DNA of 64,000 nucleotides from a virus: positions 52,303 to 116,302 of the IMG/VR virus record IMGVR_UViG_3300032307_000622. The stretch is one strand, 5' to 3'. Positions 10,689-11,414 of the stretch are shown here, one piece after another. A program made the position numbers and the translations under genes. Below the pieces are notes generated by a model. The model was not told the DNA's origin, ran no database searches, and saw only the letters and a program-made list of their open reading frames with translations. Position 1 is the stretch's first letter, and every line of letters starts with the position of its first letter.

Positions 10689-11414
10689 ATGGCAGCAAAT
10701 AAAAGAGCAGGAAAGAAGTCTCTTGCACAAAATGATTATCTGGCTCCAGCAGCCCCATTAATTGGGACTGCGGAAGATACTGGAAGCGGTAGATCTTTTA
10801 ATGATGCCAAGGTTCTTGTAACATTTACTCCTCAGGGACCAAATGATGCTACTTCGTTCACAGTAACATCTTCTCCAGGAGGATATACTGCAACAGATTC
10901 ATCCTCTCCAGTTATTCTTACTGGGCTTCAGTCAGGAGTATCCTATACATTTACAGTAACAGCAACTAATTCTTATGGAACTTCTGCTCCATCTGCAGCT
11001 ACCTCTGCAATTACAGCAACAACTGTTCCTGCTGCCGTAGGTACGCCATCAGTTAGCTCCCCATCAGCTGGTATTGACAGAGTTAGTTGGGACGCTCCTG
11101 CAAATGGTGGAAAAGCTATTTCTAGCTATTACTGGTATTCCTCTGATGGAAAGTCTGGAACGACATCTTCAACAACAGTAGATGTTAGCCAGGAGCAGGG
11201 AACATCTCAGACATACCAGGTTTATGCAACGAATGCTAATGGAAATGGAGCATCGTCTCCAAGCTCAGCTTCAGTCACCACAACCTTCTCCTTTGCACCT
11301 TTTGGTGCGTTTGGATTCTCACCATTTGGATTCTCTCCATTCGGCTTCTCGCCCTTTGGCTTCTCTCCATTTGGGTTTGCTCCAAACTGGTATGGCTGTG
11401 CTGGCTGGTGCTAA
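10689..11414 (+). CDS. Two-FN3-domain protein with C-terminal (FGF[S/A]P)5-NWYGCAGWC tail
   Basis: TGLQSGVSYTFTVTATNSYG and VSWDAPANGG..ISSY...YQVYATNANG are FN3 signatures. Confidence 0.85.
   Translation: MAANKRAGKKSLAQNDYLAPAAPLIGTAEDTGSGRSFNDAKVLVTFTPQGPNDATSFTVTSSPGGYTATDSSSPVILTGLQSGVSYTFTVTATNSYGTSAPSAATSAITATTVPAAVGTPSVSSPSAGIDRVSWDAPANGGKAISSYYWYSSDGKSGTTSSTTVDVSQEQGTSQTYQVYATNANGNGASSPSSASVTTTFSFAPFGAFGFSPFGFSPFGFSPFGFSPFGFAPNWYGCAGWC
11310..11384 (+). repeat. Five 15-bp imperfect tandem repeats encoding FGFSP x4 and FGFAP
   Basis: tttggattctcacca, tttggattctctcca, ttcggcttctcgccc, tttggcttctctcca, tttgggtttgctcca. Confidence 0.95.

Follow-up and report, generated by a model that had tools for sequence, protein, structure and literature searches.

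An aromatic repeat tail conserved in an apparently uncharacterised family of phage FN3 proteins, possibly a self-associating fibre end

In the S74/ICA-capped fibres of phages, which include the endosialidase endoNF, the T5 L-shaped tail fibre and the GA-1 neck appendage, the fibre ends in a Peptidase_S74 domain. This phage domain first folds the trimeric stalk that precedes it and then removes itself by self-cleavage (PMC8326128). The protein described here, P0001, resembles these fibres in that its gene lies in a fibre-gene neighbourhood and that four of its relatives (P0003, P0004, P0041 and P0043) end in S74. However, P0001 itself has no S74 domain with the SDxRxK Ser-Lys motif, only these 4 of 189 family members have one, and the part upstream is an aromatic repeat of 5 or 8 residues rather than a recognised triple beta-helix. 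The Hint superfamily (mini-inteins, bacterial intein-like domains and the Hedgehog C-terminal domain) is also represented, as 108 of the 189 relatives carry a Cys- or Ser-starting domain that matches intein profiles. In Hedgehog-type N-cleaving domains the S/T-x-x-H block is present and the terminal Asn is absent, like in the Ser1 class of these relatives. In contrast to inteins, the domain is terminal rather than inserted, so there is no C-extein to splice; P0001 lacks the domain, 16 of 17 Cys1 domains lack the block-B His, and the Pfam matches stay below the gathering score.

FG-nucleoporins share with P0001 an uncharged, Phe-Gly-rich low-complexity tail that is predicted to be unstructured as a monomer, and in Nup98 the GLFG repeats lie upstream of an autoproteolytic domain, an analogy with the Hint-bearing relatives. 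Nucleoporin FG motifs are separated by longer hydrophilic spacers, whereas the P0001 tail is non-homologous, has its aromatics 1-3 residues apart with G/S/P/A spacers that are under strong purifying selection, and would belong to a viral structural protein. The tandem FN3 fold is shared with the FN3/Ig-like minor tail proteins of actinobacteriophages and with protein J, for which our literature searches found no aromatic repeat tail reported. Multi-core RiPP precursors of the cyanobactin or dikaritin type also hold identical short units in one gene near oxygenases, but P0001 has no flanking recognition or cleavage sites, has a large folded N-terminal part and is encoded in a virion gene block. 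The same searches returned no description of such a tail in any phage, only general papers on Hint domains and toxins, and the family appears to be uncharacterised.

The window analysed here is a stretch of 64,000 nucleotides (positions 52,303 to 116,302 of IMG/VR record IMGVR_UViG_3300032307_000622), and all coordinates below are those of the window. It is part of a complete phage record of 116,302 bp with terminal repeats, and the source is an uncultured, siphovirus-like, 116-kb phage. P0001 belongs to the same co-directional block of genes as the portal, the protease, the capsid protein, the tape measure (2458 aa) and minor tail proteins. P0001, a 241-aa protein with two FN3 domains and an aromatic tail, is encoded at 10689-11414 (+ strand), as seen from the ORF list and translation. 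Its upstream neighbour at 9094-10665 (+) is a 523-aa tail-fibre protein (Pfam Mtd_N, 3.2e-13; PHROG tail-fibre and minor-tail families), a possible partner of P0001, and in 79 of 80 related loci the FN3 gene directly follows a homolog of this fibre gene. A scan of ten neighbours showed genes for fibre, portal and oxygenase-like proteins and none for a protease, a transporter or a recognition element. The phage also encodes a WhiB protein, and its portal shares 46-48% identity with those of Streptomyces phages. Megablast of window positions 9000-20000 gave one match, of 82 bp at 19680-19761, to Streptomyces phages; it pairs protease gene with protease gene and is unrelated to P0001 (BLASTP against the protease, E ≥ 7).

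The repeat region covers 11286-11414. The codon of F200 begins at 11286, the TAA stop of the ORF ends at 11414, and the C-terminus translates as FSFAP-FGA-FGFSP-FGFSP-FGFSP-FGFSP-FGFAP-NWYGCAGWC, which bears out the position and the (FGFSP)n-NWYGCAGWC structure proposed in an earlier sequence-only reading of this DNA. The lead-in FSFAP-FGA (residues 200-207, 11286-11309, +) is the family-wide anchor of the repeat: T198, F200, F202 and F205 are invariant in 32 aligned sequences, and TTFSF[AVT]PF was the most conserved peptide pattern among those used for scanning collections. Five 15-nt units, four FGFSP and one FGFAP (residues 208-232, 11310-11384, +), were delimited by TRF, pattern matches and the codon table; the cap NWYGCAGWC (residues 233-241, 11385-11411, +) follows in the translation, with the stop at 11412-11414. 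TRF reported a period of 15 with 4.3 copies and 84% matches on 11310-11374. The degenerate codon pattern TTYGGNTTYKCNCC matched five times head to tail, at 11310, 11325, 11340, 11355 and 11370, against 0.02 matches expected by chance, and five matches were reached in 0 of 100 shuffles.

Comparing the five units pairwise, we counted 25 nucleotide differences in synonymous codon pairs versus 6 at the sole non-synonymous position, the Ser to Ala change in unit 5. This confirmed that the units differ almost only synonymously. Over the 36 codons from FSFAP to NWY, the window and the relative L003 differ at 14 synonymous and 0 non-synonymous sites, in line with the earlier claim that the tail is held at the protein level. 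Fresh slippage junk was ruled out because of this synonymous divergence and the conservation across the family. A collagen-like helix was rejected because of the Gly spacing, which is every 5 residues in the window tail and not every third as collagen-like Gly-X-Y requires; (FGA)n runs exist only in some relatives (L034, L056). A second copy of the motif was rejected as well: the other long aromatic runs in the genome occur only in short minus-strand frames, which are presumed non-coding. The cap had also been said to share a WY-x-C signature with modules termed cassette A, a claim that fails here: WYxC occurs nowhere else in window ORFs of at least 60 aa, and every match to the looser W[YF]x(1-2)C in a six-frame scan of the window lay out of frame and was riddled with stops. 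Cys is entirely absent from the upstream proteins (967, 153 and 523 aa). Compared with the Protein Atlas, the tail alone had no usable feature match, and its structural rows were under TM 0.5.

P0001 has three parts. The N-terminal segment (residues 1-35, 10689-10793, +), which may dock the protein to the virion, has nine invariant columns in the 32 aligned sequences and a pN of 0.10-0.18, lower than that of the FN3 part; in the AF2 model residues 10-18 form a helix and residues 21-30 a strand. The two FN3 domains (residues about 36-198, 10794-11282, +) are supported by Pfam, AF2 and BFVD. Pfam fn3 (PF00041) matched residues 38-106 (E 6.6e-10, 39.5 bits against a gathering cut-off of 25), the AF2 model has two beta-sandwich domains (pLDDT 85-97), and BFVD gave 216 structural matches at E ≤ 0.001; the named ones are nearly all FN3, minor-tail or tip-attachment proteins, including minor tail proteins of Microbacterium and Arthrobacter phages and tip attachment protein J. 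The tail is an uncharged low-complexity module with an aromatic residue every 2-3 positions between Gly/Ser/Pro/Ala spacers, and it is closed by a two-Cys CxxxC cap. In the AF2 monomer it has pLDDT 47-61 and no secondary structure, a prediction that would equally fit a disordered tail or an obligate oligomer. Complex prediction with three copies of residues 190-241, run without controls, scored 0.02 and weighs neither for nor against self-association. The fn3 domain is the sole Pfam match of P0001, and the protein ends 9 residues past the repeat, with neither S74 nor Hint.

A near-length search with P0001 returned 1116 homologs at E ≤ 1e-3, and viral contigs hold at least 548 confirmed family stretches; tblastn of P0001 against deposited phage genomes gave no match. 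A scan of genome contigs detected 7 loci, 5 of which are clear family members. They lie in metagenome bins labelled Flavobacterium, Chitinophagaceae, Methylococcus, Gammaproteobacteria and Marivivens, and no host was drawn from the labels because they contradict one another. A run of at least 8 aromatic residues was present in 187 of the 189 family members examined, with a length of 19-112 residues and a composition of 39% F, 17% G, 14.5% P and 14% S. Among relatives the units FGFSP, FGAFGFSP, FSVFGFSP, FGFTP, FGA, YSFTP, FFPPFFP and YNF were found, in varying copy number. Despite these unit changes, aromatic residues make up a fraction of 0.35-0.42 in 48 of 50 loci; the remaining two have 0.51 and 0.60. 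Homologs that kept the oxygenases and lacked any aromatic repeat would have spoken against the sequence-only reading; instead, the homologs keep the repeat. When the tail was compared pairwise with six relatives, pN was 0-0.039 at pS 0.51-0.67, where repeat alignments may choose the best register and understate pN, an effect that only the gapless L003 comparison escapes. In the same six comparisons the FN3 part had a pN of 0.21-0.27 at pS 0.50-0.69 (pN/pS roughly 0.4-0.5). The tail is the most constrained part of P0001 and is under purifying selection.

The sequence-only reading had suggested looking in homologs for a further C-terminal domain such as Hint, and such domains were abundant. Directly after the repeat, a Hint/intein-like domain (Cys1 or Ser1) stands in 108 of the 189 members and a Peptidase_S74 chaperone in the four close relatives of P0001 named above, while 73 members stop within a few residues of the repeat. 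The tails of the nearest relatives end in NWYNCNGPC, NWYRCPGPC or NWYNCPGPC, or run from PNWY into Peptidase_S74, as in P0003 and P0004 (73-75% identical to P0001; 5.8e-13, above cut-off). The Hint domain, of about 160 aa, opens with an invariant Cys (17/17) or Ser (12/12) immediately past the repeat. The Cys1 profile hit inteins of known structure and a bacterial intein-like domain (1.2e-7 and 2.6e-5), and hhalign showed homology between the Ser1 and Cys1 classes (99.2%); Pfam matches of individual domains stay below the gathering score. The Ser1 class has the block-B His in 12/12, keeps the S/T-x-x-H block and has a terminal HN in none. The Cys1 class has the block-B His in 1/17, which makes its cleavage competence uncertain, and the terminal HN in 9/17; after HN, where present, there are typically 1-14 residues, often a single Lys. 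K/R stands at position -1 in 49 of 70 Cys1 forms and 23 of 38 Ser1 forms, and within the last four residues in 39 of the 73 short forms; other short forms bear Cys-rich caps. Judged from these residues, the predicted post-cleavage ends resemble the natural short ends.

Three genes downstream of P0001 had been taken for oxygenases, an assignment that stands, at the level of the fold, for two of them. P0121 (11474-12133, +) is a DSBH-fold, 2OG-oxygenase-like protein, and P0122 (12115-12768, +) is its paralog, 38% identical and with the same invariant motifs. The AF2 model of P0121 (pLDDT 91.5) gave 37 PDB structural matches at E ≤ 0.001, nearly all of them to oxygenases of the non-heme Fe/2OG or a related cupin type; Foldseek listed 3bvc, 2rg4, ThoJ, FtmOx1 and prolyl hydroxylases (E 1.6e-5 to 1e-3), with TM 0.5-0.6 to the top matches. 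H129, H131, H140, H179 and R190 are invariant in 33 sequences of the 11474/12115 proteins, and the metal ligands are probably among them. Searched by sequence, these proteins matched no oxygenase family in Pfam at E ≤ 1, and P0121 found nothing meaningful in the PDB (E ≥ 0.2) and no match by tblastn in deposited phage genomes; the Atlas offered only a language-model lead, PF13759, for P0121. On the model and motif evidence, we take the 11474 and 12115 proteins to be genuine 2OG-oxygenase-fold (DSBH) proteins, with a substrate that is only conjectured. The assignment does not hold for the third protein (12914-13513, +). It is prolyl-hydroxylase-like (PF13640, E 0.0017, 19.7 bits, below the cut-off of 27; PDB prolyl 3- and 4-hydroxylases at E 0.01), but the alignment shows Gln and Cys at the positions of the two iron-binding His, both of which are present in 13 of 24 relatives. 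In the window and in many relatives, oxygenase genes follow the FN3 gene within about 2 kb. In 9 of 50 non-redundant loci no such gene lies between the FN3 gene and a 1255-aa gene. Whole records were searched for five of these nine: two (one complete, one 68%) hold copies tens of kb off, and no copy was found in the other three (34-54% complete). L070, a Pro- and Gly-free (YNF)n variant, retains one oxygenase copy. The phage holds several further oxygenase-like genes.

Our preferred reading, to which we give somewhat less than an even chance, is that the repeat is the C-terminal module of a virion protein, most likely one associated with the tail, and forms a self-associating, likely homotrimeric fibre end, and is not a peptide precursor. 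In this model the N-terminus would dock P0001 beside the Mtd_N-type tail fibre, the FN3 domains would act as a spacer, and the aromatic module would self-associate, probably as a homotrimer zipped via stacked Phe side chains, and would form the sticky far end of a short fibre. Relatives would make this end with a removable domain (Hint Cys1/Ser1 or Peptidase_S74) that begins exactly at the repeat end and presumably cuts itself off once the fibre is assembled. In the window protein the short CxxxC cap would replace this domain, and it may lock the chains by disulfides outside the cell. The conserved C-terminal end, often followed in relatives by a domain that presumably removes itself, therefore looks less like a peptide precursor than like a new structural module of a fibre. 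The near-zero tail pN argues against a host-specific receptor-binding tip in an arms race; the FG-like sticky tip that the sequence-only reading had offered as its alternative is compatible with the data. Several observations count against the fibre end. The virion membership of P0001 is read from gene context, and just 4 of 189 members carry S74; the periods of the repeat (3, 5, 8 and 10 residues) do not easily agree with a single regular fold. Hint domains are not known to serve as trimerisation chaperones.

The low pLDDT of the tail, the composition kept by distant relatives without the unit sequence or period (aromatic fraction mostly 0.35-0.42) and the wide-ranging copy number in runs of 19-112 residues would also suit a monomeric, disordered sticker-spacer tail. 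Comparable to a compact FG-nucleoporin domain, it would be a brush that coheres or adheres non-specifically to host surface polymers, membranes or other tails. We consider this unlikely, though it deserves some weight, as the spacers of 1-3 residues are not of the longer hydrophilic nucleoporin type and close relatives freeze even the spacer residues (pN 0-0.04 at pS about 0.6), which is unusual for disordered linkers. The S74 domain directly past the tail in the closest relatives, a trimerisation chaperone (PMC8326128), also speaks against it. A doubtful proposal, a little less probable than the brush and able to coexist with either structural model, is that the 11474 and 12115 proteins hydroxylate the tail on Pro or aromatic residues, tuning its stability, stickiness or glycosylation. 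It draws on their confident DSBH fold, with ThoJ monooxygenase and protein prolyl hydroxylases among the nearest structures, on the invariant HxH...H...R motifs, on the closeness of the genes and on the absence of both the tail-protein and the oxygenase families from deposited phage genomes (tblastn). In PBCV-1, a virus-encoded prolyl hydroxylase reportedly acts on viral Pro-rich repeats. Yet the adjacency is not conserved (9 of 50 loci lack it, with distant copies in two and none in three of the five whole records), L070 keeps an oxygenase with neither Pro nor Gly in its repeat, and the 12914 protein lacks both iron-binding His. The oxygenases need not serve P0001, because the phage has several further oxygenase-like genes.

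Tail and FN3 part evolve as an interface and an exposed surface would, the tail being most conserved and the FN3 surfaces fast (pN/pS roughly 0.4-0.5), and T4 Hoc, a phage decoration protein, exposes its Ig-like domains and binds through a C-terminal part. The tail might on these grounds be a buried end, plugged into a hydrophobic groove of a virion partner such as the neighbouring fibre or the baseplate, with FN3 exposed. We hold this to be improbable: the N-terminal 35 residues, the more usual docking end, are conserved too (nine invariant columns), a fixed socket would hardly suit runs of 19-112 residues, and the bulky Hint domains would need removal before docking. It is similarly improbable, in our estimate, that the repeat is an undescribed self-assembling virion module, with a Phe-zipper fibre fold or as a cohesive domain of the FG-nucleoporin kind, whose C-terminus Hint, present in most relatives, may deliver as an activated (thio)ester for covalent attachment to lipid, cell wall or a virion partner, Hedgehog-style, with the window protein as a cap-only variant. 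The sequence-only reading had likened the tail to a multi-core precursor peptide. As a ribosomal peptide precursor, it would have its FGFSP units excised and set free in modified form. Several identical short units beside oxygenase genes speak for it, as does the presence of ThoJ, presumably a peptide-tailoring enzyme of a ribosomal natural product, among the nearest folds to the 11474 protein. We nevertheless hold it, already disfavoured, to be very improbable: the units abut with no spacers or protease sites between them, a 'leader' of about 198 residues, with the conserved N-terminus and both folded FN3 domains, precedes them, the neighbours scanned hold no protease, transporter or recognition-element gene, and the locus is a conserved phage structural block (79 of 80 loci). 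In addition, the self-cleaving domains of relatives would free the whole FN3-tail product rather than peptides.

In conclusion, our results describe a large family from phages without a cultured representative, whose members share an uncharged Phe-rich repeat (187 of 189), with a Hint domain, an S74 chaperone or Cys-rich peptides as interchangeable caps. Should the tail be hydroxylated, it would be the first protein substrate for many orphan phage 2OG oxygenases. If the repeat is a new fibre or adhesion module, it would add a building block to phage receptor-binding architecture, and would be a natural test case for self-cleaving domains that handle aggregation-prone sequences.

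The FN3-tail gene (10689-11414, + strand) encodes a protein of 241 residues, P0001, whose C-terminus reads FSFAP-FGA-(FGFSP)4-FGFAP-NWYGCAGWC. The sequence-only reading had placed this tail at 11286-11414, and these positions proved to be the codon of F200 and the stop of the ORF. TRF detected a tandem repeat at 11310-11374 (period 15, 4.3 copies, 84% matches). When FGF[S/A]P was searched for as a degenerate codon pattern, five head-to-tail matches were obtained against 0.02 expected, and none of 100 shuffles gave as many. The synonymous-only divergence claimed for the units was borne out: 25 pairwise nucleotide differences lie in synonymous codon pairs and 6 at the lone Ser-to-Ala position. 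Together with conservation across the family, this divergence excludes a fresh slippage artefact. No second repeat of this kind was found in any credible frame of the genome. The cap had also been said to share a WY-x-C signature with the cassette A modules. This was not reproduced: no open frame of the window apart from this ORF contains WYxC, and Cys is absent from the three proteins encoded upstream of the gene. In the relatives P0050, P0117 and L016:2335-3087 the reading frame changes within the repeat and unrelated sequence follows; these switches could stem from faulty assembly or from slippage that occurs naturally in the repeat DNA.

P0001 has an fn3 match above the Pfam threshold. AF2, with a 32-sequence alignment, gave two confident beta-sandwich domains, and residues 201-241 were without secondary structure in the monomer (pLDDT 47-61). 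Where its structural neighbours in BFVD are named, they include minor tail proteins from phages of Microbacterium and Arthrobacter as well as tip attachment protein J. Of 2592 candidates in a near-length search, 1116 proteins reached E<=1e-3, with 120 of them listed. Among the 120 matches listed in a search for longer relatives, 69 of less than 600 aa were clear family members and the remaining 51 were large multi-FN3 proteins aligned via FN3 alone. A scan of viral contigs matched at least 594 stretches, of which at least 548 passed confirmation, and 80 loci were retained; tblastn found no P0001 homologs in 50,697 deposited phage records.

As anticipated from the sequence, homologs carry comparable repeats and many have further C-terminal domains. 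Of 189 family members, 187 show a run of eight or more aromatic residues, no more than 4 residues apart, and the two others look truncated or frame-shifted. The run spans 19-112 residues (median 48; F 39%, G 17%, P 14.5%, S 14%). Its units vary by clade (FGFSP, FGAFGFSP, FSVFGFSP, FGFTP, (FGA)n, (YSFTP)n, (FFPPFFP)n, (YNF)n), and the aromatic fraction is 0.35-0.42 in 50 non-redundant loci, bar two at 0.51 and 0.60. Extreme variants occur among L056:10001-11335, L070:7929-8729, L071, L076, L077 and L079: about 22 FGA triplets in succession, a (YNF)n run devoid of Pro and Gly, and (FFPPFFP)n stretches ending in caps with 8-11 Cys.

Selection was assessed on codon-threaded alignments pairing the window gene with each of six relatives. 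In the tail, pN was 0-0.039 and pS 0.51-0.67, values that aligning within repeats may flatter in five of the comparisons; the gapless one, with locus L003, showed 14-15 synonymous and no non-synonymous changes. The FN3 part (10794-11282, +) gave pN 0.21-0.27 and pS 0.50-0.69, and the first 35 residues 0.10-0.18 and 0.34-0.62. Despite the alignment caveat, the tail is the most constrained region of P0001, and the annotated frame is the frame under selection. The fast evolution of the FN3 part, while both ends of P0001 are conserved, suggests that the FN3 surfaces are exposed and possibly diversifying.

The repeat is followed by different ends in different members. A Hint-type domain with an initial Cys (Cys1) was found in 70 of the 189, a related domain with an initial Ser (Ser1) in 38, Peptidase_S74 in 4, short ends without Cys in 67 and short ends with two Cys, the class of P0001, in 6; two have mid-length, probably frame-shifted tails and two no repeat. 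The S74 match of the relative P0003 is solid (5.8e-13, 49.3 bits versus a Pfam cut-off of 22). Hint matches of single sequences were below the Pfam cut-off, and a profile of 17 Cys1 domains matched the Pho RadA mini-intein (1.2e-7), a bacterial intein-like domain (2.6e-5) and other inteins. Twelve Ser1 domains matched the Cys1 profile with 99.2% probability over 154 columns; their own intein matches were weak. The first residue is invariant in both classes (Cys 17/17, Ser 12/12). Block-B His is present in 12/12 Ser1 and 1/17 Cys1 domains, and the terminal His-Asn in 0/12 and 9/17. The nucleophile, the initial Cys or Ser, lies 0-6 residues after the repeat. K/R occupies position -1 in 49 of 70 Cys1 and 23 of 38 Ser1 forms and is found within the last four residues of 39 of 73 short forms, so that the predicted cleavage would leave ends resembling the natural short ones. 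The closest relatives of P0001 share PNWY after the repeat, followed by an xCxGxC end or S74; Cys-rich caps (up to ~11 Cys) close other relatives. In the (FGFTP)n clade (L038, L043, L045-L047, L050, L061, L065), the Ser1 Hint-like domains carry an extra C-terminal extension of ~40 residues ending ...LYQQWK....

The window covers bases 52303-116302 of its source record, a complete virus genome of 116,302 bp with terminal repeats. The FN3-tail gene follows genes for a 967-aa Ig-like/fibre-like protein and a 523-aa Mtd_N tail-fibre protein in a co-directional phage-structural block, which continues with portal, prohead protease, capsid protein, a 2458-aa tape measure protein (27030-34406, +), implying a long non-contractile tail, and minor tail proteins. 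The portal is 46-48% identical to those of Streptomyces phages (Stanwilliamsviridae), and a WhiB-family gene lies outside the window (G000:C1:14684-14857, +; Pfam 48.9 bits, above cut-off); these two features hint at an actinobacterial host. MAG bins holding family members (L089-L093) bear contradictory labels (Flavobacterium, Chitinophagaceae, Methylococcus, Gammaproteobacteria, Marivivens), and the contigs concerned most probably belong to phages and were swept up during binning. Genes at the 80 loci are arranged as follows: 967-aa protein, 153-aa protein, Mtd_N fibre, FN3-tail gene, variable inserts, 11474-like, 12115-like, 12914-like, 1255-aa protein, 127-aa protein and portal. The Mtd_N fibre gene is upstream in 79/80; counts for other neighbours are lower, in part since contigs end. 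The 1255-aa ORF (13533-17300, +), just upstream of the portal region, is present in 60/80 and has no Pfam match at E<=0.01 and no PHROG match at E<=0.001.

The three genes after the tail had been regarded as oxygenases, which held in part. The proteins of 11474-12133 and 12115-12768 are paralogs (38% identity), with H129, H131, H140, H179 and R190 invariant among 33 sequences. Pfam assigned neither to an oxygenase family; the protein Atlas points the 11474-type protein to PF13759, as a lead only. The AF2 model of the 11474 protein (pLDDT 91.5) matched, by Foldseek, two uncharacterised marine-bacterial proteins, the non-heme monooxygenase ThoJ, FtmOx1 and prolyl hydroxylases (E 1.6e-5 to 1e-3, TM about 0.5-0.6). 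By predicted fold, both are DSBH-fold oxygenase-like proteins. The third gene (12914-13513, +) is weakly prolyl-hydroxylase-like, and its product is probably non-catalytic because Gln and Cys stand at the positions of the two iron-binding His, both kept in 13 of 24 aligned relatives. Further 2OG-oxygenase-like genes lie at 1469-2065 and 2067-2657 (both +; phrog_61, 1.6e-24, and a PHROG labelled ferrochelatase, 1.1e-13), and weak PF13759 matches below cut-off outside the window at G000:C1:16361-16546 (-) and 9674-9787 (+). The set of such genes in this phage is unusually large.

Hydroxylation of the tail by these oxygenases would be compatible with a structural role, and we consider it rather improbable. 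Among 50 non-redundant loci that cover the whole interval from the FN3 gene to the 1255-aa gene, 41 have a 11474-type gene within it and 9 do not. For five of the nine, whole records were searched. The only complete genome among them and a record of 68% completeness contained copies at a great distance from the FN3 gene, tens of kb going by record coordinates; three fragments, 34-54% complete, yielded none. The copies elsewhere make 11474-type genes lineage core genes whose adjacency to the FN3 gene is not fixed. One copy is retained in L070, whose (YNF)n variant contains no Pro. The multi-core peptide precursor first suggested is very unlikely on the data gathered.

We tentatively propose, at somewhat less than even chances, that the tail serves as a structural module at the C-terminus and associates with itself, probably into a trimer. 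This is favoured by tail residues frozen among close relatives, the trimer-folding chaperone attached to the tail in the nearest relatives, the position of the FN3-tail gene as satellite of a trimeric-type fibre gene, and alternative caps (Hint, S74, Cys-rich) exactly at the repeat end. Counting against it, the tail is unstructured in the AF2 monomer, mixed repeat periods are awkward for a single fold, and Hint domains are not known to act as trimer chaperones. A disordered sticky brush, a reading to which the unstructured monomer does not run counter, seems unlikely, and a buried docking plug more so.

Nup98, Hedgehog, T4 Hoc and PBCV-1 served as comparison systems. The tail composition is reminiscent of FG nucleoporins; in mode of working, ICA-capped phage fibres and Hint-processed proteins are jointly closest. 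P0001 belongs to none of these three groups and qualifies as an FN3 protein alone. The phage S74/ICA domain, as outlined in PMC8326128, folds the trimeric stalk that precedes it, after which it cuts itself free by means of a Ser-Lys dyad. No published account of such an aromatic repeat in phages was found in the literature searched, and P0001 would be placed among phage fibre or minor tail proteins, as one whose terminal module is new.
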